Assembly: GCA_964658305.1 (NCBI GenBank)
Contig: OZ210885.1
Coordinates: forward strand, 18,972,001-19,036,000
Reading direction: 5' to 3'
DNA: 64,000 nucleotides
Source: Leptogorgia sarmentosa
Taxonomy: Eukaryota
A program made the position numbers and the translations under genes. The number at the start of each line of letters is the position of its first letter. Within the stretch, counting starts at the first letter, position 1. The notes under the pieces are model-generated. The model made no database searches, was not told the DNA's origin, and was given only the letters and a program-made list of their open reading frames with translations. Shown here piece after piece: positions 39,751-63,885 of this stretch.

Positions 39751-40481
39751 TTTATATTTGTTTTATTGGATTTTTTTTAATTTGGAGAACCATTTGTTAA
39801 CGGTACGTTATTAGGACTAATATAAACTTGAATTTGGTGCGAAATACTACATTTATTTGCATAAAACGGTTTAATTAAGTCAGTCTTTGATATGAAACAA
39901 TTTCCAGCCAGACTCCAGTGTTCGCTCGTGTTCTTTTGATTAAAGGTGGGTTACAGTCCCTTCTGCGCATGTGCGCTGAGTTTGTTATGAGTAGGTTACT
40001 CATGTTACAATCATAACAAGTTCCCAGTCCTACACAGTAATAACAACACACGCGGCCGCCTAAATGTTTTCACTGTCGTGGGCTGCAAGAAGCGATGGCT
40101 GATTCAGGCGCGTCAAGTTCCGCAAAAAACCTTCAAATACTAAGCGTTGTTGCATATCTGACGCTAGAAAGGTATATGACAAGAAAAGAGACGCATCTTT
40201 CGAGCGGTGGAGAGCGTTCAAACAAGAACGTAGCCTGAAGACTGACCAGAATGTGGCAGATTTTCTGCTCGATCATTTAATACGCACGGAGAAACACGTT
40301 ATGGTGAGTGTGTTGATAATATAACTAAACCTTCGACCTTTTATGATGATTTTACGCTTTTGGCCTTTGTCTTCACAAGAACAATCAACCCTTATTTGTA
40401 ATTCATATATTTTGCTAAAAAGCTTTAACGAATATTGAATAAGTTTTGGGGTATTCTTACAAATACAAATTGACATGTAAT

Positions 40482-40538
40482 GACTTGGGGGCGAAACGAC
40501 TTGGGGCGAATCGACTTGGGGGCGAAACGACTGGATTC
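40482..40538. repeat. Short tandem array GACTTGGGGGCGAAAC x3
   Basis: Three near-identical 15-16-bp units at the centre of the foldback element. Confidence 0.8.
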
Positions 40539-40923
40539 CACACCGAATACATATAAAATATGTAAAGGGAAGTACATTATTAAAGCGTAAAATCATCATA
40601 AAAGGTCAAAGGTTTAGTTATATTATCAACACACTCACGATAAGGTGTTTCTGCGTGTGTAAATTATCGAGCAGAAAATCTGCCACATTCTGGTTAGTCT
40701 TCAGGTTGCATTCTTGTTTGAACGCTCTCCACCTCTCGAAAGCATTGAATAAAAAGATCTTAGATGCGTCGTCTCTTTTCTTGCACTTACAATTTGAAGG
40801 GTTTTTTGCAGAATTTGACGCGCCTGAATCAGCCATCGCTCCTTGCAGCCCACGACAGTGAAAACATTAGGTGGCCGCGTGTGTTGTTATTACTCTGTAG
40901 GACTGGGAACTTGTTATGATTGT

Positions 40924-41126
40924 TGTTGAAGTTATAGTATATTGTTCGGCCATAAACGATCAAAGCGAGTGAAACGACTACATGTTAAGACAAAACAGTA
41001 ATGTAATAAAATATAAATACATGTGTTGACTTTAGTCACATGACTTGATCACTGACTTATATGTTTACAAGATAACTGGACTACAGTTCAGTGTTTTGCA
41101 TGACGCACGGTCAAATATCCTCAACA
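40924..41126. mobile_element. Solo LTR (203 bp) inserted in the right arm of the foldback element
   Basis: TGTTGA...TCAACA ends with 5-bp TSD ATTGT. The left arm shows the empty site (catgttacaatcataacaag). Confidence 0.85.
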
Positions 41127-42794
41127 ATTGTAACATGAGTAGCCTACTCATAACAAACTCAGCGCACATGCGCAGAAGGGACTGTAACCCACCTTTAAAG
41201 TTTGTAAATATTTTGTGAAGTCTTGCATTTAAAAACATGAACCTATACTCTGGAATTGAGCCGTGAATTGATTAAACGCGGCTACGGCCGGCGACCTTTC
41301 ATGAAAATAGTAAATATACGCAAAACAAAAGTTCACTGCCGACAATATAATATATAGACAAACTTATCCTGTGCTTCAATCCATAGTTGTTTCGTCCCAT
41401 TTCTCAGAGTTTTATATCATCTAAGGGGGGGTTTCAAGTCTTACGCACAGATCTTGTCTTTGTTTCCCCTTTCCAAAGCTTTAAGAAGCTCCTTGAAAGC
41501 TCTAAAAAGCTTCGGCTATTCATGATAGTCCGCTATCTTTTAGAGATCAGTGATGACCTACGATGCACGATGACCCAAAATGGCGGCCAAAACAAGCAAC
41601 TTTGGACTCCGCTAAGCGGAATTATTACCCTTGCCCCGGGCTAACACCCGGACGGCGCTTTGCGCCGTGGCTCGGGGAAAAATAGTTACGATCAGAATCT
41701 GATAAGAGGAAAACTTGAATAGTGCATTTATATTATCAACAGTGCATCAATTCTCCCCCACCAATTTTAGCTATATAATTTTGGAAAACCTTTAAAAAAG
41801 AGGAAAGCCCGAACTCGCTGACGACGCTAATCCGCCCCTGCTCAATAGAAAGGATAACACTTTGTAAGAGAAATTGTACAATACAGACATGGTAGAAAAT
41901 TTCTAAATCTCTTTGATCTACTATGAGGATGAGAGTTTGTGAGAGTTGCAATTCTCGTAAGTATTTAACCGCTAAACTCTCAACAACTCTCCTCGACTCT
42001 GAACTGGTTCAGATTTTGATGAGAGTTTATTAGATTGTGTGCAATTGACCAGTCATGGGAGTTGATAAGAGTTGCAAAGAACTACAAGCTCTGTTTGAGT
42101 AACCAGTAACATCTGGTGTGATCAATTCTCACTTGGTTTCACAAACTGTCTGGAATCAGTTTGTTCTACTCCATGAAATCTGATACCAGAGATCAGGAAA
42201 ACATTCATACAACTTGTGTGTAAAAGAGTCCTTGATCTTTTGCTTGCCTTTGGGAAGTATGTTAGAGGTTTTTAGGGATCTTCCTCCTGTCAATGGGATA
42301 GCTTCTATTTCACTTCATTTCTTATTTCGGTAATGCAGATTGCAATGAATGCCGAGATATGTAAAAAGCCGTCTTTGCTCATATGTGCACTTCTAATACA
42401 CTTGAGCATATCCAGGTTAGCCATCATCTTTTCACACATCTTTTGATCAATGCTTTTATGTAGGATCATGGTTGGTGAGGATGTGCAGGTTGATAAGTTT
42501 AATAGTGCCATAAAATGTAATAGTTTTTCTGAGTTTGATTTCTTGATTAACCATAGAACCAAATTTCTTTTCAAAATGTACCAGTAGAATTTGAACATGA
42601 TTTTCGTTTCTTCTTTTGTAAAAGGACCGGATGGCCTGACACGTTTGACTGGCAGAGAGTATTCAACTGCATCTAAATAATAAAAATAGGTTATCTTCTA
42701 CTGGAACTGTATCTTCTACATAATGCATGAAAGACTGTGGCATATGACATATTTGAATCGATGATGATATTCAGTGGTGTTAAGAGATGCTATA

Positions 42795-43494
42795 CAGGGT
42801 GTATCAAAAAAAAGTTTACTGATGAAAAACATTCTCTAAACTAACGAGCGCTCAAAATTTCCAAAAACTTTCGGTTAGCATGGGTAGTTTAACACCCTCT
42901 GGTATATCTAGCACTAAGTTAATTTAAAAAACACTACATAACTTTTTTAGAATGCAACCTGGTTTCTGGAAGGCCCATTAAAAACGGCTTGCGCGGAAAA
43001 AAAGTTTTCTTCACACAATTTGATTTAATCGGATGAAAATATGGAGTATGATATACAAGCTATTCAAGTTTTGAGAAATTTGGTGCATGCTGAGACGAAT
43101 GTGCGATGTCTGAAAACTGGATTTTCCGCAATTTCTTTGTGTAATTACGCACCTTTGGGAATTGGCTTGCAATTTGCATTGGTAATTAATGCAAATATCC
43201 AATTATGCATAAATTAATCGGTAATCAAGCAGGAAAGAACGCAAAATTTAAATCAAATCCGATTAAATCAAATTGCGTGAAGAAAACTTTTTTTTTCCGT
43301 GCAAGCCGTTTTGAACAGGCCTTTCAGTAACCACATTTCCCATTCTAAAAAAGTTTGTTTTTAAAATAAACTTAGTGCTAGATATACCAGAGGATGTTAA
43401 ACTACCCATGCTAACCGAAAGTTGTTGGAAATTTTGAGCACTCGTTAGTTTAGAGAATGTTTTTCATCAGTAAACTTTTTTTTTATACACCCTG
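42795..43494. mobile_element. Tc1/mariner-type MITE with long TIRs
   Basis: CAGGGTGTAT.AAAAAAAAGTTTACTGATG ends, TA TSD, inverted arms of roughly 240 bp. Confidence 0.93.
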
Positions 43495-43769
43495 TAGTGG
43501 AAAGGGTGGCCAGCAAAATGACCATAATATCTCTAACGTACCATCGGGCACAGATGTTTCACTTTGTGCAATAAGTTTGGGATCCGATTGCTGAAATCGC
43601 TTCGAAACTGGTTCATTTAGTTGCTTTGATATTGGGGAAAGACAGTACTTTCCCATATCTTGATAACACCCAGAGAAAAACTTCCAATATCTTCACCATC
43701 TGTTATTAACAAATAGAAATAACTAAATAAGATGACAATCGAAAAGTAAAAAGTATCAAAACCTACTAT

Positions 43770-44229
43770 ATATAATAATAATTTAATTGTGCTTTTTACA
43801 TACAATGATCCAAAGCGCATTACAATACACTCTTTTATACATGCAACTATTAATAATCTTAAATATATACATTTAATGGAGGCTAAAAGCTAGCTCTCTT
43901 TTCAGAGAGGAATTAAAAATTGAAAGAGAACTGATACTCCAAAGGCTTAGAGGAAGTGCATTCCAGAGTGTTGGCGCAGCCACACTAAAAGATCTGTCTC
44001 AGAATGATTTTAACATCTTCCCCACTGGATGTGAGATGATAATACCCGAATTGGAACGGAACGAGTACCATTCCCTAATATACTCTGGTGTCAAGCCGTT
44101 AAGAGCTTTGAAAGTTAAGAGTAAGATCTTAAAATGAATCCTATACCTAACTGGCAACCAGTGTAGTTCCTGTAAAACAGGCGTAATATGGCTGTACTTG
44201 CTAGTAGACGTTAGCAGCCTGGTCGCAGC
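43770..44229 (-). mobile_element. 3' end of an L2/CR1-group LINE (continues at 56230, 57674-58500 and 61530-61905)
   Basis: AATRLLT...HITPVLQELHWLPVRYRIHFKILLLTFKAL...RSFSVAAPTLWNALP, and an L2-like tail with TTA repeats. Confidence 0.85.
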
Positions 44230-44233
44230 CAGG

Positions 44234-47200
44234 AACGCGTATTGGTTGTTGTTATGCTGTGCCCTTAACAAAAATTCCGGTTATTTCTTCATTATTAACC
44301 AAGGCAAGCACGCTTGCCTTTACGATGATAATTCAGCTATTGCCCACGCGCTAAGTCAACTTTCGCGGTCTGCTATTCGAGGAATATAGGCGAACTGCAA
44401 GCGGCGCTTCTAAGGAAGGCCGCTCCATTGCCAATTGGTCAACTATCAATCCTAACATGTTTGTTATATGATACTTTCAGTACTAGCTTTCGCAATTCAA
44501 ATACCAATTAATAGTATTGACTCTGATCTTTGCATATTGTGGAGTGAATTAACTTGCAGTAGTTCTTGCCTTCATGTATTACTGAATTTTATGAAAGCAT
44601 TTTGAATCAGAAGATAAGGTTTGTATTTAAGCTTTAGGGCATCATTCTCTAGTGTATTCGAATATACATATATATGCACGTCATTTATTTGCGACTCAAA
44701 CGCGCATACAAATTGTATACTTGTATAATTGTATTCTAGAGCTCTCGTAACCTAAAATATTCGCTAACTGCCCAAGCCCAACTGATATCCACAAGTAAAT
44801 CTAACATTATATATACTATCTACTATATAGTAAACACCTAAACAATCTTCGGGTATTAGCATGCAAACTGCGGCAGTAGAGAGTAGCAGCATAGTTCGCG
44901 CATTTACAATAATACAACAAAAAATTGGCGCGCATATTTGATGACATCATTTGCATATATGTGCGTCATATATTGCGTGATATATGTACAAAGTGCTAAT
45001 GCGCCATGACATCAAATGTTCAAAATAGCGGTCGCAAAATAGGGTAGTGCCAATTTAATGCAGTGCTAGAAAAGTCCGATGACATGTTTAGAAAAGACGA
45101 GTATGTGGTAAGGAGTAGGTAATTTACGTAAGTAGAACCGCTCCTATACAAGCCACTCCTGAGCGGCAAAGATATATAACGGACAAAATTTCTACTTCTT
45201 CACATGTAAAAAAAACTAGTAGTGCAAAGTGTGATTACCGTCGTATACCCAAAATATATGAAATGAACACCTGTCTCGTGGAATTGTTGCTTTCTCGTCC
45301 TTTTGGATCCCGACGATTCTCAGAGAAAAAAGAAATTGTTGAAAGAGGACGCCCAACTCCCGAGATCCCAGAATTACACACAACATCGAAACGTGGCAGT
45401 AAAGTTTTTGTTCGAAGTTTTCAGACATCAAATTATGAAAAGTACAAGTGGCTTGCTGGTTCTACTAAACTCAATAAACTATTTTGCTGGCCATGCCTTT
45501 TGTTCAATCCCACAGACAATACTGTATGGAATAAGAAAGGATACAGCGATTTGGGGAATTTGTCTAATGCTATCAGTAGACACGAGAAAACCAAAAGTCA
45601 TTTGTCAAGTTGTTTGATGAATGCTGCTTTTGGTCGAGCCCGCATCGATTTGCAACTAGACGAGCAAACACGTCAGCATATATCAGCGCATAATCTGGCA
45701 GTGCATAAGAATAGAGAGATACTTCGCCGTTTTATTGATGTCGTTTGTTTCCTTGGCAAACAGGAACTTTCCTTTAGAGGACGGGTGGAGGTCCAAGAAT
45801 CAGCCAAATGTGGCAATTACGTGGAATTGGTGAAGCTGGTCAGTATATACGATTCCTCGCTGGAGCAACATCTTCAGACGGCTACTGTGTTTTCTGGAAT
45901 GTCGAATCATATTCAGAACGATTTGATCATTTCTGTTAAAAATGTCATAACCAAAGCAATTATGGACGAAGTGTTTAGCAGCCCATTCGTCGCGATTTCC
46001 ATGGACGAAACCTCCGACATTAAAACTTTGTCTCAGTTAACCACTATTATTCATTATGTAAACTCTGATGGCAAACCTGTGGAGCGTTTTCTTGGATTCA
46101 CCGACGTAAGCGAAGACAGAACAGCAGCGAGATTGAAACAAGAGGTTGACGGTACTTTGGAGGAGTACGGATGTGGTGGAAAATTGATTGCGCAAACATA
46201 TGATGGAGCGAGCGTTATGTCGGGGCAACTAACCGGTTTGCAAGCTCGTGTTAGAGAGGACTATCCACATGCCTTGTTTATCCACTGTTGTGGACATGCC
46301 TTGAATTTAGTGTTGGTCCAAGCAGTGTCGTCAACCAAAGAGTGCAGAGTATTTTTCAAGACTGTCAGTGGCCTTTCACGTCTCATCCAAGAGAACGCAT
46401 TTGTTAGACACGATTGTTGGTAGACGAATTCCCACTGGTACTGCTGTCCGATGGCATTATCACGCAAGACTAATCCATGCAATACTGGAGACGCGGGAGA
46501 AGCTGGTGGAAGTTTTCGAATACATCGTGGAACACGACGATGAATTCGAAGGTACTGTGCTAAACGAAGCTCGTGGCTACCGCAATATTCTCACAGATTT
46601 CCAGTTTGTGTTCTGCCTAAACATATTCTCACCTTTGTTCGGACTCACAACTATTCTCTACGATATTGTCCAAAGCAAGCAGTTTGATATTGCGTATTGC
46701 ATCAACAAAGTTCAGGAAACGAAAAGCAGAATTCAAGAATTACGGGACAATTTTGAATCGTATTGGAATTCTACTTTAGAAGTTGCGGATATACCGAAGA
46801 GACGAGGGCAAACTGAACAACAAGTTAAAGCGTCATTCCGTCGAATGTTTTTCTCTGTCGTTGACACCGCGGTCATGCAGATTGATGTCAGGTTCGAAAG
46901 TCTGAACAGCATGAAATTTGTTTCCTTGCTTGACCATTCAAAACACGAGTTGTATAGTAGAGATTTCCCAGAAGAAGAATTACATTCCTTGGAAGCCACC
47001 TATGGCTCATTTTTCAATATCCTTGCCTTAAAAAGTGAACTAACTGTTGTTTATGCATCTGCTCAACTTAAATCAAAACCTGTTTTTGCCATGATTAAAA
47101 AAATTGTTGAACTTGACTTACAAAATTGCTTTCCGGAAGTTTATCGTTTATGCCAACTGATCCTAACAATGCCAAGTACCTCGGCCTCGGCTGAGAGATC

Positions 47201-47762
47201 GTTTTCAGCGCTCAAGCACATCAAGACATACCTTTGAAGCACCCAAGGACAAGATCGGTTGTCAGCATTGGCTACCATCTCTATTGAGAAAGAACTTTTG
47301 ACTTGTTTGCAGGGGAAACCAGAGTTTTATGACAACGTTATAAAGAAGTTTTGTGCGAAAGAAAGAAGAATGGAATTTACATTTAAATAGTTTCATTAAA
47401 CCTTTTATATACATTTTTTATAATGCTTATGAGTTATGATGTAGTCATATAGACTGAGGAAATATATATAACATATTTATATCCCTAACTACAGACATGC
47501 ATTTACTGACATTACAGACATTTGAAGATATTTTTGCCTCGTGTATTTACTTTATTTTAGTAGTGATTTTAGTCATTAACTACAGGTGAAACAAACACTA
47601 ATTCGTTGTCATTTGCCGCTGAAATCGCCGTAAATGCCATCCCAGAGCTTTGCAATTTCAAAAATTTTCTGGGGGAGAATCCCCCCAGACCCCCCTTCAG
47701 GGTGTTCGCAGCTTCGCCGCGAACACCACTTGCCTACTACATTTGTTCACCGCACGCCACTG
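44234..47762 (+). mobile_element. hAT (ZMYM1/Tip100-like) transposon, left end deleted
   Basis: Right end ...CACGCCACTG at 47762 (CAGTGGCG-type hAT terminus). No matching left terminus seen. Confidence 0.75.
45263..47390 (+). pseudogene. hAT transposase (TTF-type finger, DUF4371-like, dimerisation domain); one frameshift near 46370 and a stop at 47235-47237
   Basis: KWL...LFCWPCLLF, SMDETSD, QTYDGASVMSG, IHCCGH.LNL, PSTSASAERSFS.LK.IKTYL*STQGQDRL. Confidence 0.92.
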
Positions 47763-47806
47763 GGTCGCACTACGACCGCAATGCATTTTTTTGCGTTTTC
47801 TTCAAG

Positions 47807-50800
47807 ATGGCGGATTTTGAACAACAAGACAGGTAAGTTTCGAATTGATTTTCTATTTATATTCAAGGTTTCTGCTTAAGAATTCTGATTAAAAAGAATA
47901 CTCCAAAACTAGTCTTCGTGTTGTCATACTTTTTGAGTCATCAAGGTTTAGAATTCTATCAAAATATCATGTCATTTGAAACACTTGTATTTTGGCAGGT
48001 TTCAAATATGTCTTTACATTCACATATACCAGGTTATATGTGCAAGTACTATGTTAAATTTTGCATTGAATGTGTTCTTTGATAGTTATTTTTTGCCTTT
48101 ATATGATCGCGCCGCGTAGCGCCCCTTGAATTTATCCTTTTTTTGGCACTTCATTTCGTGCTATTTTCAGGTTGGATTTTAGGTCTTCTTGCGAAGATTT
48201 ATCGAGTTCTACCGCCATATTGGGAAAGCGGTCATGCATTCCAGAGGGAAATACGTCTGGGAAAAACAAAACTAAGATAAAGAGGAGCGGAGAAGGCTGT
48301 ACAGCGAAAAAGTCGCTTTTTGATAATGAGAAAAAACAGGGGGAGATTAACAGAAAGTCTTGCAGTTGGGCGACTGCAGAATTGGCTGCATTGGTTCAAC
48401 ACATATGCCTGTACTGGGATGGTGCACACACTGAAAAATGGCCAACAACAAAAGACATGAAATTTTGGAATGAGTGTGCAATATCTGTCAATAAAATGTG
48501 TAATTCTTCTCGCACAGGTTGGCTACATTTATTAATTTCCATATTCCACCATCCACCAACAGAAAATTAGATAGTAGGCCTATATTGCAAGTTCCTACAT
48601 ACTGTGTACTGTTTTCTGTATACTACTCAACAGGGAGGGAAAGTTAAACTTGTTTGTTGTTTGGTGCTAAATTATTATTTTTTTCATAGGCTCATCATGT
48701 AGGACTAAAGTCACTAAATTTTTGGTCAAGGAGTTTGCAACGTTATCTGATGCAGAGGAATTTTATGAAATTGACTATGTTACCAGTGTAACTGACTTCA
48801 AAGAATCGTCCACTTCAACTCCAGCAAAGCCAACCACTAGTGATGTGAATGTATGCTTATCACCGATTTTTAGGTGTTCACCCCAGAAAGCAGCAAAGAT
48901 AACATTGGGTGATACAATTCAAAACTTTGTCTCTGCCTTTCAGTGTTCAATGTCTGAACGTCTGCGAAAGCAATTAATACAACATTTGTTTCAGCAGTTA
49001 GTCATCAGTTGTGGCGGGCATTCATTTAATTCATTTGTCCAACATGATTTCATTGACACAAGTCTTTCAGCAATGAAAGTGTTATATGATAAAGGCAAGC
49101 ATAACCTTGTTTACCATATCTCCAGGTGTTTTAATTGTGAGGGTGAAAGAGCAGAAACTCGAATGCCAATTGACAGGATGCCATTTGGTTTAATTGATTA
49201 CAATGTTCGATTTTTTTCATCGCCATCATCACAGAAACTAGGTATTGAGAATCATTATGCTATCTGGCTTGAAACCATGCTTGCCCATTTTGGTCAAAAG
49301 TGGCTGTGTCTGTTCAGAGGGCCCTTCTGGCAATATGAAATGCAAGAATATGCAGATGCATCTCTGCATTCCAGTACCAGTCAGGAGTCATGTGATGTTA
49401 ATGCAGGGATGGAGTCTATCATTGAAACTGCTCTGCAAGAATGTTCATTGAATTTAAATGAATACCAAGGACCTGTAGGTGAAATAACAAGCACATCAGG
49501 ATTGAGTGAACAAGTAGCATCATTACAGATATTAAATGATGTCAATATTGAAGAAATTGTTATTGATCATAATTCAGGAGTTGAAATTTTGGACTGGACT
49601 GAATCAGATCAATCTGTATCAGCGAAAGGGGAAAGCAGACAAGGCTTAATCGAAGTCATTTATGGGCACAGATAAACAATGAAGATCGTCAAGCTATTGA
49701 GAATGAGCAGATCTTGCCTGAATGCATGGAGGAGCACCACAGCATACATCCTATCTCCAACAAGAGAAGGGAAGTGAACCCCAACATATACAATCCACTG
49801 CAGGTCTGTATTGTATATATATATATATATATATATATGAGTGACAATAAAAATATTGAATGTTGAATCATATATGAATAGAGTGCTCAATACAAAAAGC
49901 AGAGCTTGTATAGAAGACAAACTTGAGATTTTGTTTAAAACATTTATTCACATTATATATATATATATATGACACTCTGTTTCAGGCCAAAGTAAATGTA
50001 GCTGCAATAGGAGTACGTCAGATTCAGAAAAACATTGCTCGTTCTGGCTTTGTAAAATCTGCTAACATCCAGGTATGAAAATTCATATTTTATCATTTTT
50101 GGAATTTTCAATCACTAATTCTCATCTTTTAATAGGCAATTCGTCACAACACAAACAGTTATTTATCACTTACTATATGATTGTATATGGTATTCCCCGT
50201 CCCACAAAAAAATTGTTTTTGTGTCATCATCTGTGGCTATTCCCAACATGTTTTCAATCAGTAAATAGGCAGGCACCATTTCTAAATGCCCAGTTTAAAT
50301 GCCACAACGAATATTAGCAAGTATTTAATCACTAAAAAGAACTTAATTCGTTCAAGTGTAGTTTAAATAGTGTTATACTTATTGTAAGTGTTTTTATAAG
50401 GTATTCCTCCCCAGACTTTTCCCCTTTAAAGTTTAAACAGAATTAAAACACTCTTTTGAGAAAGATCTAGACTAAAACGAATTTAAAACCTCTGTCTTGT
50501 TTTTAGGTGAAAGCTCTGCAAGATGCGAAGGCCAGCAACCCAAACGGTCGTTGGTGGATTAAAGCAGATGCGTGTGATGTTCGTGATGGTCTACGAGAGA
50601 GTGTGCATGGGATATGGTCTGGCGATGAAGATTTTGGCGATGGTTCTGTGGAAAGTCTTCATGCCGAGTATGCATCAAAATGTAATACTTTTAAAAGGCT
50701 ATTTGCTCAATAACACTCTAGTGTGTCAATGGATGATCTCAAAACATTGGTTGACGAGTTTGTTGATGACACAGAGTTCCTCAAAGATGGTATGGCCAGT

Positions 50801-53039
50801 GCAAAAGAAAAGTATGAGAAAAAACTAACTAATTCTCGGTGTTCAGATGACCTGCTTATGAAGTTGGCATGGGATGTTGTTGGATTTGAGCAACTTCTAA
50901 AGCAGGCAAATGAATTCAAGAATGAACTTGAACTCATGATTAACGATTTAAAGCTTTGTCTTCAAAATGTAGCAGTCGCGCGTCTACGAAACTTACAGGG
51001 AAGCATCATGCAGTACTACAAGGACCTCTACAGCAAGAAAAGATCTCCTGCAAGTCACTTGCTTGTATTCATGCTTGCTGACGAACTTTGCAATGTTAAG
51101 CCATATGCAGTTCCAATACAGTTTCTACCGATTAAGTCTATCACTGATGATCAGATCCGCCAGCTAGAACACGAGATTGAAGCTTTAATGAAAACCAATG
51201 GAATGGTTACAGTTGGTATGTAATTAGAACTAATAACGTGTGTCTAATTACAGGTAAATTCATTTACGATTTTATATTACTGAACAACATTGCCACAAAA
51301 TATTTACAGGATTCACCAGATGGAGAATTCAACTCGTTACGAACAATGGGGAGCAAACGTCCAATCTCTATCATTGAGGTCATCCGAAACGCCAAGGCAG
51401 AAGCCCGCAAAATGGGGGCAAAAACGATTTTGAAATATTTTACATTGAATCCAAATGGTATGTATGTTAGAATTTGTATTCAAACTATCCAGTTTTATTA
51501 TGATTTGTACATAATTATCAAAAATTCAGGCCTATTATAATGCAGCCTTAGTGGTTAAAATGTGTGAAAGGATGGAGGCTCATTATTTTCATAATCATAT
51601 TTTCAGGTAGTTCCACTGTTGAGGAACATCCTGCGGTTCCACTGGAAAGTATTTTGTGGTTGCACGATTACATGAATGAAAATGATGAAGCTAGACCAAT
51701 TGAGCAGGCTCTCTACATTCTAAGAAGGACGTTATTTCCTTTCTGTTAGGATCCATATCCATTCGTGGAAGGTAATGTTCAGTATCAAACAGGCAGTGTG
51801 CGGAAGAGAAACATTGTCAATTTTACAAAAAGTGTGTTGATTTTTTTACAGGTAGAAAGGAAACCAGGGCTGAGCTGTTAATGTCCATCATGGCCATATT
51901 TTTATTCCGTTGGAAAGTTCAGAAATTGAAAGAGTTACTAGTTGACCCTGCAAATTTCAATGACTTTCTCTACCAACCTGAGAAAGACGAGGATACCAAC
52001 GAATATATCCATCACCGTGAAGATCATAATCACATGTTGAAAAGATTGGTGAATTGCTTACGAGAAGGTTTAATACCCGGTATTGACCTCTGCTACTTCA
52101 GGGATGCATTACACAATCCAAAAACTGGATTAACATACGAGTCGCTCACAGGAAAGAATAAACAGTCTGTACCAGATTGCGAAAGGTTGATTTCTCCAGC
52201 CGTCGTTTCCTTCCTTAGAGAAAAGGGAGATATAAAAGGAGCCAATATTTTGTCAGTTATTTGCAATTGGCATAAAGCTGTTGACGGGAGAGGTCTTAGC
52301 GAAGAGGAACGTTCGTCCCATCTGACTGATATGAAGAACTGGCTACTCGATGATTGGATGCCCTGGCACAGATTCAATAAAGATTATTCGACAATTGACG
52401 TCAACAGGTCGGTAACACTGTATACAAATATGCATAATACTTTTTGACGTTCTCATTATGTTCAACTCGTATGTTAAAACAATATCTGGGCTATGTATGT
52501 AGTATATAATCGATTTGCATTGGGAATTATATTTTACTGCAGACCCATCAAAGGGTATATGTGGCCTGACCCGAGAGTTGGTGATTGCCCTCGTTGCAAA
52601 CTTGGAAAGCCGGGAAATTCGCAGGGCCGTGTATCAGAGAAGAGAAATGAAGCCAGAACACCCACGAGCATCATCTAGTGATGATGTAGAAGGGTTCTTC
52701 TCTCTACTCCATGGCATGTTGGGACCTGTGTTCGACCTGAAACAATTTTACGACGAGTCTCGGAAGATTTTGAACGAATATTCAAAACGAATCGACTCAG
52801 AACTACCATTCTTTCACTGGTCAGGCAAGAATGAGAGATACAGGGATTTCGAACTTCCCAGTTTTAATAAACCAAGCGGAAGTGGCGTTATCGAGAGGCT
52901 GGATAAACTGAAGGTATCGCGGCGGGGTGACCCAGGTGTATTCGTAGCCAATAGGGCTTCGCTTCCCCAAAAAGGTCAGCTAACATGCCGTGCAACGTTC
53001 CACAAAGCACCTGTTGCACTTCCACCATTGGGCAATTAA
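47807..53039 (+). pseudogene. Multi-exon P-element-like DDE transposase with an N-terminal Myb/SANT-like segment; contains in-frame stops
   Basis: ATG at 47807 and about 9 GT-AG exons. Motifs SWATAELAALV...KFWNECA...CRTKV, WWIKADACDV, LLVFMLADE, DGEFNSLR, EDHNHMLKR (D(2)H), GKNKQSVPDCERL, RASSSDDVEGFFS. Confidence 0.7.
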
Positions 53040-53238
53040 AAACAGACATTTTACAGCAGGTGCACAAGTACAACGGTATATCTGTATAAATAAATGTAAA
53101 TACGTAAACTACCAATTCATAAGAATCAATGCACACTTATAACCGTTATTCACCATGATAATTTTTAATGCAGAAACGTTTAAGTAAATTTTACATTGTT
53201 CTTCACTATGAATTGAAATAGATTGTTATAACTCAGTT

Positions 53239-53994
53239 CTATATTACATTTTTACTTGCTGCGACAACAGCATTGTCCCAAAGTCCTGTTTTTGTAATAT
53301 TTATCATGAGATAAAATCCGACACGCAGATAGTTTGTTCTAAAGCGAATATTCTTCACAGAGACTTCAATGTTACCTGCTTCTAAAAGTGGATGTATGAA
53401 ACAGGTTAATTCCCGTGGTATATATCCAACCTTTTCAAAGTCATTGTCTGACATTAGGTATACAGCTATTGCATTTGGGTCATATGTGTTATCAGGATCA
53501 GGCTCAAGGTCAACAAAAACATGTCTATTGTTAGTTATGTATTCATATGCAGTCTCTAAAATAGTCTGTCTCTCCTTTGACATGCAGGTTCCGAGAACTT
53601 TGAATGGGAGGGTATGTTTTTCTTGATTGGAAAACTCATTGGTTAAACCAGCAGGTTTAGCAGTTTTTTCTGGTACATTTAAGGATTCGTTTAATGTACC
53701 TATAGAAGCAGAAGGTTTCAGTTCCCATAAAACAATGTATTCTTCCTTGTTTTGCAATGTAATAGTACAATACTTTGTGCAAGTATATTTTCTTCGTCCG
53801 ATAATTTCAGCACTATTTACCAGGCCAGTGATATCCTTGTCCCCTTGTTTGAATGTAACTTCATTAAAGTTTATTGTGACCACAGGAAAGCATGGGATAG
53901 TCCAAGGCAATATGACTTTTTTGATACTCAAGATTTCAATTTCCAGTGGGGCAACTGTTGTGTCGACTGTAACTTCTATATAAGACAATACCAT
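53239..53994 (-). CDS. HIRAN-domain ORF (probably the terminal exon of the nuclease gene)
   Basis: FKVLGT...VDLEPDPDNTYDPNAIAV.....KVGYIPREL, the HIRAN signature (EPxNxYDxNAIxV...GYxP). Confidence 0.8.
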   Translation of the reverse strand: MVLSYIEVTVDTTVAPLEIEILSIKKVILPWTIPCFPVVTINFNEVTFKQGDKDITGLVNSAEIIGRRKYTCTKYCTITLQNKEEYIVLWELKPSASIGTLNESLNVPEKTAKPAGLTNEFSNQEKHTLPFKVLGTCMSKERQTILETAYEYITNNRHVFVDLEPDPDNTYDPNAIAVYLMSDNDFEKVGYIPRELTCFIHPLLEAGNIEVSVKNIRFRTNYLRVGFYLMINITKTGLWDNAVVAASKNVI

Positions 53995-54113
53995 AACTTG
54001 TAATGCAAGTCAATGCAACTGGATATCCTTACTGAAAGATAACTGCATTTACTATATATTATATTCAAATTACAATAAGCCAAGCTACAGTATACATTTT
54101 CTACATGTATTAC

Positions 54114-56084
54114 CATGTGTTTTCATATCACCACCCTCCTCTTGACCTTCCTCATCTTCACACATACAAGGATTAGGTACCTTCAAAAAAAACATAACAA
54201 ATTACACACTATTCTGTGCAAATAAAAATATATATATATATATGTTACATATAATTTGAAGAGGCTTGTAAACCCCTTCAAATAAATACTACTTAGCTGC
54301 TTGAATTACAGATTACTATGCACAACTATACACTGTTTTTATTTCCTTTTTCACATTATTAGAATGAATTTACCTGTCTCATTGGTACATGATCAAATGA
54401 CCCCTTCTTTACCTGGTCTTTGGGATCAATATTTCCTGCAGCCAAATCTAAGACAAAAGGCTTAGGTAATAAGCTAAACACTGTTGTTAAGGATAAATAT
54501 TCTACCAGAAAAACAGAAGTCAGTAGAACAATGAATATTGCAACTACAAAAAGATACTCTCCACAAATGGTTTGGAGTTCATTATCTATAATGACATCAT
54601 TATTTAACGGGAGTGTCTCACACACACTAGGATCATTGACTGTTTGGTGATTGAAAACCAGACAAGCTTGTTCAAAACCCTTAGTGTAGTCAGCTGGAGC
54701 ATACTTCAATGATTGCAACACATTTAAATAAGCCTTGTTCTCGCAAACAATTCTCTTGGCCTTATTAATGCCAACTCCTTTAATATTGTCGAGGTAGTCA
54801 CAGCCTGCTGCAATGCACATGTCTGTGAACTTATCTGCACTCAGGCTTAAATGTTTCAGGACCATTTTTAGCTCTACAAGGTCACCTGTGCCATTTCTTT
54901 CCAGCTTAAACAACACCTGCAATATGATAAAAGATAATTTATTTGATGGAAAACAGCATTGATTAAGCCATAAAGCTTTTAACTCCCAAATATGTATGGG
55001 CAAAACTTTGTTTGCTCCCTACCCATTTGCCACCTCCTACCCCATAAATAATGACCACTGATGACTGACTCCCTAGTGTAATACCAAATTTGCAGAAGCT
55101 ACAAGCTGGTCAGCTGCTAGTGAGCAATATATACACGTATAAATACCTTGTTACACTGATAGGCAAGCAAATCCGAGTCTTCTGACAAAGCAAAATCAGC
55201 ATAACCCTTTTTAAGAAGAAAGGCAATCTGGGCATCTGCTTCATATGGTGCCATTATATATGGTATGTCTCTTTCACAGCAAATCTAAATGACAAACCAT
55301 TTAACCATTTACAATTGGTGAAGACCTTACTTCACTTTTCATGTGAAAATACGAACTCAAAATCTGCAGGGTATATATTCTAGAATCGCTTATTACAGCG
55401 CCTGGTTTAAACAATTATGACATACCTTCACCAGCTTTCTTACTATTTCATAATTAATCTTGACCGATCTAGCCAAGGCTTTCTTTGCAGCCACATCATC
55501 ACCCAGTAAGGAAAAATATGAGGCGTTTTCATGCTCTTTGCTCCTCTTTCTACAATAATAATAGACAATTTTGAAATTTTCCTCCAAGAGCAACTACTAT
55601 AATATATCTATAATTTATTAAGAGGAATCTATATCACAAACAAATTTTATTTAATGTAATTAAAGGTTTTTAAACAATATAAAGGAGTTATTCTTACCTG
55701 GAACGCTTTTCGTTTACTCGTTGTTTCGCGGGAAGAGGCATGCTGTCGAACACAATATATGGCTTCACGCCATTTGCCGTCAAGAGACTCCTGAACGAGT
55801 CACATATATCAATGACCCTTGAAAAATTTGCATACTAATTAAAATAAACATTGTATAGATTGCTCATTTACAAATTTAGCGACTAAACAATACACAAATT
55901 ATAAGGCATACTGTTAAAACAATTATACAAACCTGCGATCATTGCCAAATTCTTTGTAGCTTACAGCCAACGCTTTGTGAAGCCAACACAACACATCGAC
56001 TGCACATACCTGGCCAGCGAAGTCTTTTATATGTACCTTGACAGTAGCTTCTTTCACAAAAGGCAAAAGGTTTTTTATTCCCAT
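54114..56084 (-). CDS. EXO1/XPG(FEN1)-family 5' nuclease, about 7 exons, transposon-borne
   Basis: MGIKNLLPFVK...AVDVLCWLHKA (N domain), PYIVFDSMPLPAK, YIMAPYEADAQIAFL...SEDSDLL (I domain), CIAAGCDYLDNIKGVGINKA (H3TH), GNIDP. Confidence 0.85.
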
Positions 56085-56871
56085 TGTTTTAAGAAAAAAT
56101 ATGCCTGGGTTCGTGATCTTTAACCTTCCATCACTTCGTTTCACCCTTTCGCTTCAGCAATCAGAGCACAACTGAGCGAAATTTTTATTTGCGCATGATG
56201 CATTGCGGTCGTAGTGCGACCACCGCCTGGGTCGCAGCATTCTGATCAAGGAAATCAAAATAATGGATCAACCTGACAAACTCACAGACACACGACTTAT
56301 AAACATACTAAACACAAACGACAAACTTGATCAACTACAAATTGATGCCCTGTCCTTGATAAGGAGTGGAAGGACTAACAACGATCAAACCAACAACGAC
56401 ATACACAACACACAAACACCAACGCACACTGACAGCAACACTGGCCTACAAAACCTGACCCAAAAAACACACCCGATAAAACAAACGACGACGATGAACT
56501 TATACCTCCACATACGGAAGAGACTAGAGCACCCTCCTCAACCTACAAACTCCTTTCCGACCTCCCTATACACCTACACACCACACTACATACCCTGAAC
56601 AACCTAAACGAAAAACAAATAAAAACACAAAATACCCTGGAAAACCTGACAACGCACAAAACCGATGTTACGCTACTCAACAGCCTAAACAAAACGACTA
56701 TTCACTAAAGTTATGTGAATTAGTTTATACATCTAACTGACAATATGGCTGGAAGATATGGGCTACCATGCAATACATCATTTTTTGTTTTTTTCTGTAA
56801 ACTGGTTAATCCATAACACACCCACCATCCTCATATACACAAAACTAAAAAGAACAACAACCAACAGAAAA

Positions 56872-57156
56872 GCCCCTACTGATGAAGGTCTTACACGGCA
56901 AAAAATGATCAACCTGTTCGGGGTTGATGAAAACAGGATTGAACAATGTTTTGCTGCCCACATTGTTCAGTGTTGTCAACAATATTGAACAACATTGTTA
57001 CACCCGAGTGCAGGCTTATTTAGGCTCAACAATGTTGTTCAATATTGTTGACAACACTGAACAATGTGGGCAGCAAAACATTGTTCAATCCTGTTTTCAT
57101 CAACCCCGAAAAGGTTGATCATTTTTTGCCATGTAGGACCGAAACACGTCGAGGGC
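56872..57156 (+). ncRNA. Minimal type I hammerhead ribozyme (Penelope-type) with a MITE in loop II
   Basis: Removing the MITE gives GCCCCT A CTGATGA A GGTCT-TA-GGACC GAAAC AC GTC G AGGGC: core boxes, stem II, a short stem III and a closing stem I. Confidence 0.7.
56894..57133. mobile_element. Palindromic MITE (240 bp) with TA TSD
   Basis: CACGGCAAAAAATGATCAACC...GGTTGATCATTTTTTGCCATG, with arms covering most of the element. Confidence 0.92.
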
Positions 57157-57189
57157 CAAAAAATTACATTACCAAACAAGGCTTGTCCG

Positions 57190-57600
57190 CCATAATATCG
57201 CCAATATTCTTCAAAAGTAAGGTCTATTCATCCTAGACTCTTTGAATTATATGATGGCCTCAACATACATAGATATTTCACATCTGACCTATACAACCAT
57301 ATCCACAATCTCTTCCTCTCACCTTTTACAGTTTTTAATGCATTGATTCTAGCTTTATTTTTCACGTTTTTAAATTGTGTGCAGTGGAATGTGTATATAT
57401 GTGTGTATTCGCGCCATATGCGTATCTTCCTATAAAAACACCTTGCAGGACGGTCTTATAATATAGACCCTGCGCGAATATCGTGTTTTGCCATGCAACA
57501 GCTATACAACAGATGAGATCAAACAATACCTACAACATCAGTTAAAGGAAAGTCCAATAGGACCCTTTGAATTTCAGTTCAACAATGAACGTTCCCTAGG
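57190..57600 (+). repeat. Dispersed repeat, copy 1 (other copies at about 62987-63440 minus and 63496-63885 plus)
   Basis: Shared blocks such as ctagctttatttttcacgttttt, gtcttataatatagaccctgcgcgaatatcgtgtttt and aaaggaaagtcca.tagg. Confidence 0.85.
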
Positions 57601-57673
57601 GACCCTATGAGTACCACATTAACCACCGAAAACGCCCCATGGAGGTCCATTTACCTATCTTTATAATTGCATA

Positions 57674-58500
57674 TCATCGGCAAAAACCATGGGCATCAGG
57701 GAGATGTGCTTGAACAATCTCAAAAAGATTTGAAGCATACATAACAAAGAGAAGTGGCCCAAGGCAACTCCCTTGTGGGACCCAGAAGCGCACATCACAA
57801 CTGTCTGATGTAACTCGGTCAAACACGATGCGATGGCTACGCCCTGACAAATATGAAGAAAACCACTCTAGAGCCTTTCCCTGAATACCAAAACTCGAAG
57901 ACAAGCATGACAGTAAAATCTCATGATACACTGTATTGAATGCAGCGCTTAAATCCAAAAGGACAAGTAACATAACACTTTGCAAGTTCATATTCATAAG
58001 AATATCGTTAGCAAACTTGAGTAGCGCTGTCTCTGTGCTATGGTACTGACAATAAGCTGATTGTAGTAGAGGATAAAGACCTGACTGAACCAAGTGGTCA
58101 TAAATCTGATTAAATACAGCATGCTCAATGAGGGTAGAGATAAGCTAAATAACTAACAGGACACAAGTTCATAAACAGCTGGTCAAGGCCCAGTTTCTTT
58201 AACAGTGGTTTGACTGCGGCCACTTTCCAGTCCTCAGGGAAAACTCCTGATTCCAATGAGGTGTTAATTATTTTAGTGATTACTGGTGGTGTGGGGACAG
58301 GATCAAGAGAGCAGGATGTGAATTTAGAGTTGGCAATGAGTATGCGCACATCGTCCCCCATCAGCAACGCAATTATTCAAAAACAGATGGAGTCGGTGGG
58401 TCAGGTATAGTGCTACTATAATCCGGGACATTGTTCGTAGTCGCGATACCCAAATCGAGCTCATCTCGAATCCGAATAACTTTCTGCACAAAATACATCC
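57674..58500 (-). pseudogene. L2/CR1-group RT fragment (same element as 43770-44229)
   Basis: SCSLDPVP, WKVAAVKPLLKK, STETALLK, LDLSAAF, VPQGSCLGPLLF. Confidence 0.85.
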
Positions 58501-61500
58501 CTAGATAGATAGATAGTTTATTAACTAAAACATTGCAGCCATAGGCTGAATTACGTTAAGTTTACAAAATTATTATAGCTACTAAGATATAGGTGATAAA
58601 TATAAAATGTGACAAATCTAATTATTGAAGACATGACTAAAGATAAAACTGTTCTTGCAACGTTCAGTCTTGCATTTTGGTAGTTTATATGATCTTTGAC
58701 TCCTAAGAGAGTACATAGGTATGTTCTTTTCAGGCAAAAGTGAGTACAATTTATGGTCTTTGTTTGCTTGGATCTCGGCGAAGAGCTTGGAGGAGATATC
58801 TTCTCTTCTTTCAGATAGTGTGGGTAAACCAGACGCGCAGATGGATTCAGCATAAGACAAATCAGAGTAGATGATCCGAAGAGCACGTCTTTGGAGACGT
58901 TCCAGGTCATCACTCAGATAGGCTGGCAGAGCACAGTGGAAAACTGGGCTGGCATATTCCAAAATCGACCTGATACACGTACAGTAGAATAGAATGAGTT
59001 CTTCCAGGCCAACTCTCCATCTCTTGAGCTGCTTTAAACAAAGACGAGAAGAAGCTTTCTTTACCAGTTCAGATATATGAACGTTCCACTTGAGATCATT
59101 ACTAATGATCAGTCCCAAGATTTTAGCACTGGACACAACTTCAAGGGGCTTGCCATTTACTTCTACTGGGTCATTAGTAGGCTGTTTCTTTGCAAAACAA
59201 ATCCTGATCTCTTTGCACTTGCTTTCGTTAAGTTGGAAGTCGTTAGAGAGAGACTGTCTAGAAAGACAGTCTACAGCAGCTTGAATGTTACTGGTTTGGC
59301 CTTTCTCTTGCACCTCTAAAATTGTGGTGTCGTCGACGTATTTCCACATAGATACTCCTTGAACTCTGAGGTCGTTGATCATTATTAGAAAGAGCCACGG
59401 GCCCAGTTTGGTCCTTTGGGGCACCCCAGCAGGAACAGAAATCCATTCTGAATAGCAGTCGTTCGCAAGCTTGACACGTTGCTTTCGTTTCATCAGAATG
59501 TCTATGATCCAATATAGTACTTGTTGTGGGATGTCATACGCGGACATTTTCTGCATTAGGATGTTGTGGTTAATCAGATCAAAAGCCTTGCGAAAGTCAA
59601 ACAATACAACATGGTTCGTAGCTCTGTTTCCATCAGTAGTCACGTAAAGCTTGTGCGTTATGTTAAGGGCATGCGTTGTACTCGATTTAGGGATCGTGCC
59701 AAATTGGTGAACGTCGATTTTGTTAAGGACAGCAGGTTTTACATAGCTTTCCACGACGTGGTCCTCTGCAATCTTGGAGATAATTGGTGTAAGTGAGATT
59801 GGGCGAAGATGTTTATTTATGTCTTGAATTGGTCTTTGCTTGGGGACCGGGACGACATCTGCTTCTTTCCAGGCAGGGGGTAATCGCCCTTCTCGATAGG
59901 AACAGTTGAGAATATCACATATTGGACAAGCCAGAAGATCGGCATTTTCTTTCAGGAGCCATGCTGGGATTGCGTCAGGGCCTTGCGCTTTAGTTGGATT
60001 GAGCGTCACGAGTTTCTTAAGAGTAGACATTTCAGTCATAAGTGGAAATTCATCAGTGAGGTCCCCCGGTACAGCATGTTGTTGGAGAGGGTTGCAGGTG
60101 AGTAGTTCAAGGTTTTCCATTGGAGTAAAAAAACTTGTATTGATAAAGTTGGCGCAAATCCACATATCACTCAGTTTCTTTACCTCTTTCCACCAGCTAG
60201 ACGGCGAACACTTAAGGTGTTCAACTTTACATTCGTAGTACTTCGCCCGGCAGGTCTTGCGTTCGCGATTAACTCTATTCCTCAGGTGACGAAACTCCTC
60301 TAGATTTCCCTGACTGAGTGCTGATTGACGCTTTCGAATCAGGATTTTTAAGGAGCAGTTGATCCATGGTGGTTTCGGTTGTATGCAAAACTTTCGATTG
60401 CAAGGGTGAAATAAAGTCAAGTCCACTTTTGATGATCGTTTTAAGCAGGGATGTTTTATCTTCACAAGAGTTTGCAGTGTTGATGGTATCGGTGACGTTC
60501 ACTTGATCAAGATACGTCCGCATTGCTAGTCGATTACTGGGTCTCAGATCTCTGAATAGAACAGGGTGTTTAACTTGAGAAGATTTAGGTCGTTGCTTTG
60601 GCTGTACTTCAGCAGAACAGTGATCTGAGAGTCCAAATGCAGGACGCTTGATCAGTGGGTCGTAGTAGGTCTTCAAGTTGGTTAGGATTTTGTCCAATGT
60701 GTTCCCACCGCGAGTTGGAAAGTGAATGATTTGCTTCAAATCAAAATTTGATTTTAACCGCAAATCATTGAGTTGATTTAAGTCGCCTAGTAAGATTATA
60801 CCGCTGTTCGGGTGTTTGGATCGATATCTGATAAACAGCTAATGAGATAGTCAAACATTACAGAGTTGTTTGTTGTTGGTGGATGGTAAACGAGGCCGAT
60901 TATAATATCGGAGATTCCCCTAGGGAGTCGATGTGGTCTTATTTTGATCCATAGCACTTCCAAACCATCGGTCTTATCAGTGAGATCGTCTAAACCGGTG
61001 AAATGGATTAGTTCATTTAGGTATATACATACACCTCCATGGACTGTGGAACTCCTGTCAAGACGAATTAAGTTGTAGCCTTGTATATCCACTGCAGAGT
61101 CTGGAATGTGTTTTTGTAGCCAAGTCTCCGTAATACAAACAATGTAGAAATTTGCATTTATAACAGAGTATGCAAGTTCGTCGATTTTAGGAGCCAGAGA
61201 CATCACGTTAGAGAGGAACATCGATGGGACAAAGTGCTTGTCCTGTCGAACACTTTTATTGGGCTTGCTAGGAATGATATACATGTAGTTTGCAGGATTG
61301 CGAGAGCGGCGATGAACTTTTCCTTTCAAGTTACGCTTCGCTTGGTTTGGTTGAACATGGCGGATTACATAGCATTTAGAAACTTCTCACACTTTCCAGC
61401 TGTTTTCCCTCTGTAACGTTGCCACAGCGTTTTCTTAGCAGTAAAAACATTCTTGATAGTTAAAACTAATGATTGGATAAGTAAGAAGTATAAAATTAAA

Positions 61501-62290: not shown

Positions 62291-62986
62291 GATTGAAGGT
62301 TTTACAACCATTGAGGCTGGATAACTTTCTTTGTAGAGCGATCTAGAGCCATAAACCGGGAAAACTAGCTTGTATAAAACAAGTAGTTTTACATTGCCAG
62401 TGTTTATCATAGTTCTTGGAATTGAGTTTCAATTTAATAATATGACGTGCTGTTCGTCCGGCAATTTTATCTTTTACCCCAAAATACCCTTTCCCTAATC
62501 CTAAATATCCCTAATTTTATCCCTAATTTTATCCGTAAATATCCCTGGAATTGCCTATAGCCACTTTGTTAAAGTGCTACTGAATCGAAATTTTGGGTAT
62601 GCGTTTTTTTACATAATCGAATAGTTCAATCTTTCCTGATCAGTATGGTATATTTTTTATAATAATTGAAGAACGGGAACACGGATAATTTTCGCTTCAA
62701 AGTTGGGCTATGCATGCGAATTTTTTCTCTTGAAATATGATGCCGGTGTGACGTAATTAAAAGGACGGAAGTCGATGTATGAGCAAGCTTTGCTATATAT
62801 TTTGTTAGTGTTTTTGTGTATGTTCATGAATAAACACGAGTTTATCGAGCAGAGAAAGCGAACGGAGTTTGGATAACGAGAACTCTGATGCGTGTAGTGA
62901 AAATTTACATACGGATTCGAGCGATGAGGAAACATTGGTCGTGAATTCCGTTGTGAATCCGTATGAAAACGAGCCGCTCGCAAAGC

Positions 62987-63885
62987 CCTATTGGACTTTC
63001 CTTTGAATGATGTTGTAGGTATTTTAGATCTGCTGTATAGCTATGATCATGTATTGTGGGTATTAGGCTTTAGTCCTTTTTGTTATATAGTCTAGGTGTT
63101 TAAAATGTCCAGTCCGTGTTGTAGTGTGGCTAAAAACACGATATTCGCGCAGAGTCTATATTATAAGACTGCCCTACGAGGTGCTTTTTAGGAAGACACG
63201 CATATAGCACAGATACACACATATACATATAAGTTTATACATTCCACGTGCACACAATTAAAAACGTGAAAAATAAAGCTAGAATTAATGTATTAAAAAC
63301 TGTGAAAGGTGCATGGGAGGAAGGTATTGTGGGTATGGTTGTCTAAGTCAAGTGTGAAATATCTATGTATGTATGTTGAGGCCATCATATAATTCAGAGA
63401 GTCTAGGATTACTAGACCTTACTTTTGAAGTATATTGGCGAGAGTTATTTGAGTATAGATACAATCATCCGTGGATAAGTTTTGTATAGTAATGTCACCT
63501 TTTACAGTTTTTAATACATTAATTCTAGCTTTATTTTTCACGTTTTTAATTGTGTGCACGTGGAATGTATAAACTTATATGTATATGTGTGTATCTGTTC
63601 TGTGCTATATGCGTGTCTTCCTAAAAAGCACCTCGTAGGACAGTCTTATAATATAGACCCTGCGCGAATATCGTGTTTTGGCCATTTACAACATACGACG
63701 ACACACTACAACACGGACTGGACATTCTAAACACTTAGAGTCCTAGACTATTTAACAAAAAGGACTAAAGCGTAGTACTCAAAATACATGATCATAGCTA
63801 TACAGCAGATCTAAAATACCTACAACAACATTCAAAGGAAAGTCCATTAGGACTCTTTGATTATCAGTTCAACAATGAACGGGTC
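62987..63885. repeat. Two inverted copies of the dispersed repeat, forming a large palindrome
   Basis: About 62988-63312 is the reverse complement of about 63496-63850, with a spacer of roughly 185 bp. Confidence 0.85.

Follow-up and report, generated by a model that had tools for sequence, protein, structure and literature searches.

Does a P-type DNA transposon carry, and depend on, a nuclease of its own? The question is raised by a 64,000-bp stretch of the Leptogorgia sarmentosa genome (contig OZ210885.1, positions 18,972,001 to 19,036,000), hereafter the window, to which all coordinates refer. The window holds a damaged copy of a P-type transposon, related to the Drosophila P element, that carries a second, nuclease gene. 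We tentatively propose that this copy represents a branch of the P superfamily that lacks THAP, has not been described before and occurs in corals as well as in lancelets, acorn worms and brittle stars, and that this branch may need a dedicated EXO1-OB-HIRAN enzyme to process its transposition ends.

An initial annotation of the sequence had treated the interval 44230..56229 as one transposon. Its outer ends hold, but a hAT element of its own kind is nested within that interval at 44234-47762, so the P-like element proper measures ~8.5 kb, with CAGG…CCTG terminal inverted repeats (TIRs) of 32 bp each. The parts are as follows.

44221..44229, no strand: left target-site duplication (TSD) GGTCGCAGC, within the C-terminal coding region of an old long interspersed nuclear element (LINE) fragment on the minus strand
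44230..44233, plus strand: CAGG, outer remnant of the left TIR, of which only positions 1-4 remain outside the hAT
44234..47762, plus strand: nested hAT, outside the P-like element, with DUF4371 and a hAT dimerisation domain; right end ..CGCCACTG
47763..47786, plus strand: left TIR positions 9-32, its inner 24 bp, from the inverted-repeat match and contigs of other copies
47807..53039, plus strand: putative P-fold DDE transposase gene, 9 exons, ~1215 codons, broken in the window copy
53239..56084, minus strand: accessory gene, 8 exons, 598 codons, EXO1-like nuclease plus predicted OB plus HIRAN
56198..56229, minus strand: right TIR, 32 bp, reading inward CAGGCGGTGGTCGCACTACGACCGCAATGCAT
56230..56238, no strand: right TSD GGTCGCAGC, then a few further LINE bases

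The perfect 24-bp inverted repeat (47763-47786 / 56198-56221) is present as first annotated, but it is not the whole TIR: left-end contigs of other copies from public runs X1, X2 and X8 match all 32 bp of 56198-56229, giving a TIR of 32 bp. Two convergent spliced genes were also correctly recognized between the repeats, and all of their introns (8 in the transposase gene and 7 in the accessory gene) are GT-AG. The transposase exons (47807-47832, 48171-48517, 48690-49803, 49986-50072, 50507-51215, 51310-51457, 51607-51771, 51852-52407 and 52543-53039, plus strand) encode the motifs ADACD, DGEFNS, EDHNH, KQSV, WHKAVDG and SDDVEGF, and the family alignment keeps D(A/G)xD, TDGE, EDHxH and DDVE, suggesting a DDE triad and DxxH with putative catalytic roles. 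The motifs named at the outset are conserved across the family; the window copy itself is dead, with three frame switches (near 49440-49650, 51316 and 52553) and two stops (50711 and 51747). One transposase exon matches 479 clusters at 50% identity (E up to 0.001), and named relatives occur in Paramuricea (65%), Dendronephthya, Porites, Branchiostoma, Glandiceps and Amphiura; none of 37 pattern matches in viral contigs and none of 31 in prokaryote genomes was a relative. Intron number and position differ among families (L004, L006, L007, L011, L014 and L028 versus L008, L022 and L037), and several relatives fuse exons kept separate in the window.

The P-like assignment is supported by fold. 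The AlphaFold2 model of P0017, a homolog of full length (47% across the query exon; predicted local distance difference test score (pLDDT) mostly >85 in the core), matches Drosophila P transposase (6p5a) with Z 25.9 and a root-mean-square deviation (rmsd) of 3.2 over 319 aligned residues, chain 201-565. The next structural matches reach 10.3 at best, including Transib (10.1), Hermes (9.5) and ISCth4 (8.9), with RAG also within 8.9-10.1. Modelling thus supports a P-type fold, that is, a P/THAP9-type RNase H with an insertion (GTP-binding) domain. The best structural match is not to a hAT, MuDR or Transib transposase, with scores of 8.9-10.1 versus 25.9 for P. Foldseek ranks 6p5a/6pe2 first for the same model, at E values of only 3e-3/8e-3, and another homolog (P0041) has P/THAP9 clusters as its ESM Atlas neighbours, at 0.81-0.88, which is no more than a lead. 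Pfam gave no THAP match in the window exons or 14 homologs, which places the family outside the THAP-bearing P/1360/Galileo families, though its catalytic core is P-like; weak Myb/SANT-like N-terminal matches occur in 2 of the 14 homologs (P0032, E 8e-4; P0041, E 0.016). The P0017 model also has a long four-helix insert (residues 543-673) that separates the first catalytic motif of the RNase H domain from the second and resembles talin/vinculin-like bundles only, no transposase being aligned by name.

The exons of the second gene (56084-55933, 55817-55698, 55549-55426, 55284-55147, 54916-54558, 54473-54374, 54180-54114 and 53975-53239, minus strand) form 598 codons that are stop-free with the predicted acceptor 54473, the nearer acceptor 54501 breaking the frame. 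An EXO1-like XPG nuclease (residues ~1-320) is followed by a predicted OB domain (~355-445), an acidic linker and HIRAN (~470-598). The EXO1/XPG nuclease and HIRAN had been annotated from the start and score above Pfam cut-offs (XPG_N, E 3.6e-7; XPG_I, 1.9e-15; HIRAN, 2.1e-12), human EXO1 is the best PDB sequence match for two exons, with two motif regions aligned, and the XPG_N + XPG_I + H3TH core has its acidic active-site motifs. Acidic residues D30, D75, E147, D149, D168, D170 and D218 are present together with K82 and R89, whose EXO1 counterparts we take to have roles in that enzyme, and the EAD/EDSD/GCD motifs are kept in relatives whose contigs extend that far. What the initial annotation missed is the predicted OB fold. 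The last exon, folded with 11 relatives (pLDDT 77), models as two domains, HIRAN (lp_0118, Z 10.9; HLTF, Z 9.0) and, preceding it, a ~90-residue OB fold that is PriB/SSB/RPA/HIN-like (PriB best, with 79 residues aligned at Z 8.8 and rmsd 2.5). OB folds make up the majority of the top 50 structural rows, over model residues 1-92; Pfam detected no OB domain. A third domain between nuclease and HIRAN, predicted to be an OB fold, is thus new in the present analysis. In word-based searches, which are weak, none of 939 candidates was a full-length nuclease-OB-HIRAN protein of 434-2000 residues, and the H3TH exon gave 1 of 179 candidates, an EXO1-like protein at 32%. HIRAN (window 53242-53620 and relatives) scores slightly higher against a Lactobacillus protein than against HLTF and matches several phage families; a prokaryote-type origin of this domain is possible.

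Linkage of the two genes was counted in 51 metagenome loci recovered with a transposase exon. Nuclease and/or OB-HIRAN is found on 14 of these, always downstream and on the opposite strand (convergent, 14/14), and the positives span 12 of the 32 clusters formed at 90% DNA identity. Most of the 37 negative loci are uninformative because their contigs are too short: among loci with at least 1,300 nt past the transposase end 11/15 are positive, and three shorter loci are positive too. The nuclease domain is reached in five loci (L008, L021, L022, L042 and L050), all EXO1-like and all with one dataset prefix; four also hold OB-HIRAN in unchanged order, and L050 does not. Both TIRs were found together on none of the 51 contigs; with a TIR matrix, a left end was recognised in L008, L014 and L037, and weakly in L036, but a right end in none. 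Copies in runs X1/X5 (window 47975-56194) carry internal deletions (49583-50526, 51789-51986, 52971-53324 and 54838-54891), of which the joint 52970-53325 puts transposase and HIRAN on one contig.

The genes also appear to have diverged together. Trees were built for ten elements, the window copy and 9 of the 14 positives, omitting two near-duplicates, two short fragments and L050. All transposase clades with support of 93 or more recur in the accessory tree (support there 71-100), the two trees disagree solely among the four closest elements, and distances correlate (Mantel rho 0.68, p 0.0004). The ratio of nonsynonymous to synonymous substitution rates (dN/dS) in the OB-HIRAN exon is ~0.19-0.20 in three unsaturated divergent pairs (L003/L004/L008) and 0.45 for the close pair L021/L028, most remaining pairs being saturated. 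Co-occurrence, tree congruence and purifying selection together support the accessory gene as a long-kept partner of the transposase and not host EXO1, consistent with its original assignment to the element.

What might such a partner do? Taking all readings combined, the accessory protein probably acts on DNA ends made by transposition. The most likely single reading, put forward with some reserve, is that it resects the donor-site break after excision, favouring sister-templated restoration. Drosophila P makes one cut at the 3′ end and a second, on the other strand, 17 nt further inward, leaving 17-nt 3′ extensions, and the donor break is repaired by homologous recombination or non-homologous end joining (PMC7776569). 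If the transposase of the present family cuts in the same manner, it would leave long 3′ single-stranded tails and a recessed 5′ end, a substrate that would seem suited to an EXO1-OB-HIRAN protein. The role of OB and HIRAN would be to keep the tail and its 3′ end bound, as the HIRAN domain of HLTF recognises the 3′-hydroxyl of single-stranded DNA (PMC7804152), while the nuclease would digest the 5′ strand at the donor break. Repair would thereby be steered from end joining to restoration of the element with the sister chromatid as template, and each jump would gain one copy.

Several points weigh against this reading. The P-type cutting pattern is assumed for the transposase of this family, whose profile gave no transposase match, and none to P transposase, among PDB sequences, and whose Pfam PF21787 matches, in the window exons and 14 homologs, are sub-threshold only. 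The Z scores of the OB model are close to the tool's caution level of 8. The host already possesses EXO1, so the need for resection by the element itself is not obvious. The HIRAN domain of Rad5 binds single-stranded DNA without 3′-OH preference (PMC7804152), and a 3′-end function is therefore not given by the domain name. Finally, the initial annotation had singled out transposase copies lacking the nuclease as evidence against the association, and four of the 15 long-enough loci (L001, L016, L043 and L051) are negative. Two of these have positive relatives at 98.8% and 91.6% and one stops inside the transposase; the right TIR was seen on none of the four, and complete elements without the nuclease may exist. 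The linkage counts apply to the metagenome loci.

A possible alternative, not far behind in likelihood, is that the nuclease is itself a core part of the cut, the transposase nicking the transferred strand only and the EXO1-like enzyme cutting or digesting the non-transferred strand, or trimming the strand-transfer product, to make the 3′ tail. The very constant linkage and co-divergence described above would fit such an essential function, how and in which order P cleaves its strands is not established (PMC7776569), and in Academ elements the length of the TSD seems linked to the accessory enzyme (PMC10045372). The GTP-contact stretch of P (F443/D444/N447) also seems to match W-H-K/E-A-x-D in the family, as judged at motif level. 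Over 319 residues, nevertheless, the model keeps both the catalytic and the insertion domain of P, and the element has a P-like 32-bp TIR and 9-bp TSD, hence P-type cleavage by the transposase, as supposed under donor-site resection, is more parsimonious.

It is unlikely that the accessory protein helps transposition indirectly, by acting at stalled forks or gaps (with HIRAN as in HLTF/Rad5), in target choice or opening, or in timing to replication. HIRAN and OB are fork- and single-stranded-DNA-binding modules, and P insertions are enriched at replication origins (PMC7776569), but this explanation accounts for a catalytically intact-looking 5′ nuclease no better than end processing does.

The 9-bp TSD bears on the P-type comparison and was evaluated from both the window and other copies. 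The target site GGTCGCAGC occurs exactly twice in the window, adjoining CAGG on the 3′ side of the left copy and CCTG on the 5′ side of the right copy; the 13-mer of TSD plus CAGG is expected by composition 0.00015 times in 64 kb. As annotated initially, the insertion splits LINE codons: deleting 44230-56238 brings back the LINE frame ..QNAATRLLTSTSKYSHITPVLQELHWLPV.., with the minus-strand reading QNAATRLLTSTSKYSHITPVLQELHWLPVRYRIHFKILLLTFKAL, which we take to be the C-terminal part of an L2/CR1-type LINE ORF2 (open reading frame 2), and for which a Pfam scan gave no relevant match at the insertion site. Contigs on 56090-56262 come from X1 and X2, which share a sample, and from X8, which has a different organism code, X6 having no contig there. 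Those diverging from the window exactly after 56229, with mutually unrelated flanks, are 3/3 in X1 and 3/4 in X2, and their flank agreement (0.57) is about that of three random sequences; the fourth X2 contig is the window's own junction and may derive from the same DNA source. Other copies whose left end is intact show CAGGCGGT-GGTCGCAC.. there, and distant relatives L008, L014 and L037 begin CAGGTGGTGTGCG, with the end common to L014 and L037 and the flank not. With the ends fixed at CAGG..CCTG by contigs from other runs, the TSD is 9 bp and not the 7 bp with which the window alone is also compatible. It is quite improbable that the TSD is instead 7 bp (GTCGCAG) with CCAGG..CCTGG ends, or that the duplication reflects a chance agreement with the hAT target GGTCGCAC. 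The symmetric 7-bp reading fits the window letters alone, the single X8 contig matches one base beyond the end (56230), L008 and L036 have C before CAG, and the 9-bp length comes from one insertion, the sole one with both flanks known; set against these are the X1 and X2 divergence points, the common left end of L014 and L037, which begins at CAGG after T, and the LINE frame, which the 9-bp reading restores. The length is less unusual than first stated, as TSDs of 8/9 bp are reported for the Drosophila buzzatii P element and BuT5 (PMC3698922).

Very improbable, and already largely refuted, is the view that the nuclease gene was captured from the host or rides along as a passenger, without a role in transposition, or host EXO1 adjoining a transposon by chance: EXO1 is the best PDB match and the window nuclease gene is intact beside a dead transposase, yet the convergent position is kept in 12 clusters with congruent trees and purifying selection, element copies share 30-54% identity with one another, the five nuclease-bearing loci fall within one dataset prefix, and the nuclease sits inside TIRs found at several unrelated flanks.

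The nested hAT (Pfam DUF4371, E 8e-20; Dimer_Tnp_hAT, 1e-7) has a contig depth several times that of the rest. In X8, contigs ~3-5% divergent span both genes of the P-like element, with zero depth over the hAT coding region and both adjoining flank bins. The hAT insertion follows left TIR position 8, breaking the left TIR, and TIR positions 5-8, the left target duplication of the hAT and its left end are gone; we infer that the missing outer TIR part and hAT left end were lost in a later deletion. Placement of the hAT left end at 44230 was rejected, given a poor match to the hAT right end and hAT-family contigs that terminate near 44235-44255 or further in. The hAT is frameshifted near 46376 by an 11-bp deletion relative to contigs of other runs, and a high-depth derivative skipping 44985-47562 is present in three runs. 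The LINE target GGTCGCA(GC) at 44221-44227 equals TIR positions 9-15, GGTCGCA(C), at 47763-47769, which is also the hAT target; this identity may be coincidence or a preference for TIR-like targets.

Beyond the element, an A/C-rich degenerate coding stretch (56247-57200) ends CTGATGAAGG..GACCGAAACACGTC, is split by a 254-bp palindromic MITE (miniature inverted-repeat transposable element; 56887-57140), and presumably resembles a Penelope-like element with a hammerhead core. Rfam (43000-58000) gave no hammerhead match at this stretch and only three sub-threshold microRNA matches, on the palindromic MITE, and a hairpin internal to the TIR was no better than shuffles (z -1.5 to +1.2, 8 strands). 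Long-TIR MITEs and two further LINE fragments with reverse transcriptase and endonuclease open reading frames lie nearby (39940-41198, 42793-43496, 62984-63854 and 57674-61386).

If the proposed resection role is true, no P-type element before this one would be known to bring its own resection machinery, and DNA transposons would have recruited a 5′ nuclease independently once more. P elements rely on host repair of a 3′-tailed break, and cutting of the second strand is still an open point (PMC7776569). They are otherwise single-gene, and a P-fold family with its own 5′ nuclease and two predicted single-stranded-DNA-binding modules would allow a direct test of transposon-steered donor repair; the same family could also test whether cleavage is split between two enzymes. 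The three-domain protein is further a candidate tool of compact size for shifting the repair of double-strand breaks to homologous recombination. A literature search, outside of which lay Repbase/Dfam and supplements, found neither an XPG/EXO1 nuclease nor HIRAN described in a P-type element; a Repbase entry with the same layout is quite possible.

The element shares with the P superfamily (Drosophila P, 1360/Hoppel, Galileo and THAP9) the transposase fold (Z 25.9), DDE with DxxH and CA..TG ends, and its 32-bp TIR compares with 31 bp. Its 9-bp TSD is like those of the D. buzzatii P element and BuT5, the P superfamily otherwise having 7-8 bp (PMC3698922), and its second, convergent nuclease-OB-HIRAN gene is not described for any P element in the available text of PMC7776569 and PMC3698922. 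It differs further in its ~1200-residue transposase with a long helical insert, lack of a THAP match and weak Myb/SANT-like N-terminus. ISL2EU/Harbinger-type elements carry an accessory YqaJ exonuclease, and so also combine a transposase with their own nuclease, but the transposase superfamily differs. AcademX is a DNA transposon with a second, XPG-family nuclease gene, as in the window element, and an Academ-type transposase in contrast to the P fold; we know of no OB-HIRAN fusion in AcademX. The TSD of AcademX is 3-4 bp, compared with 9 bp in the window element (PMC10045372). Host EXO1 shares the XPG_N/XPG_I/H3TH core with the accessory protein, and HLTF shares the HIRAN fold. To our knowledge, EXO1 has no OB-HIRAN tail and HLTF no nuclease. 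Compared with EXO1 and HLTF/Rad5, the accessory protein joins nuclease, predicted OB and HIRAN in one protein inside a transposon.

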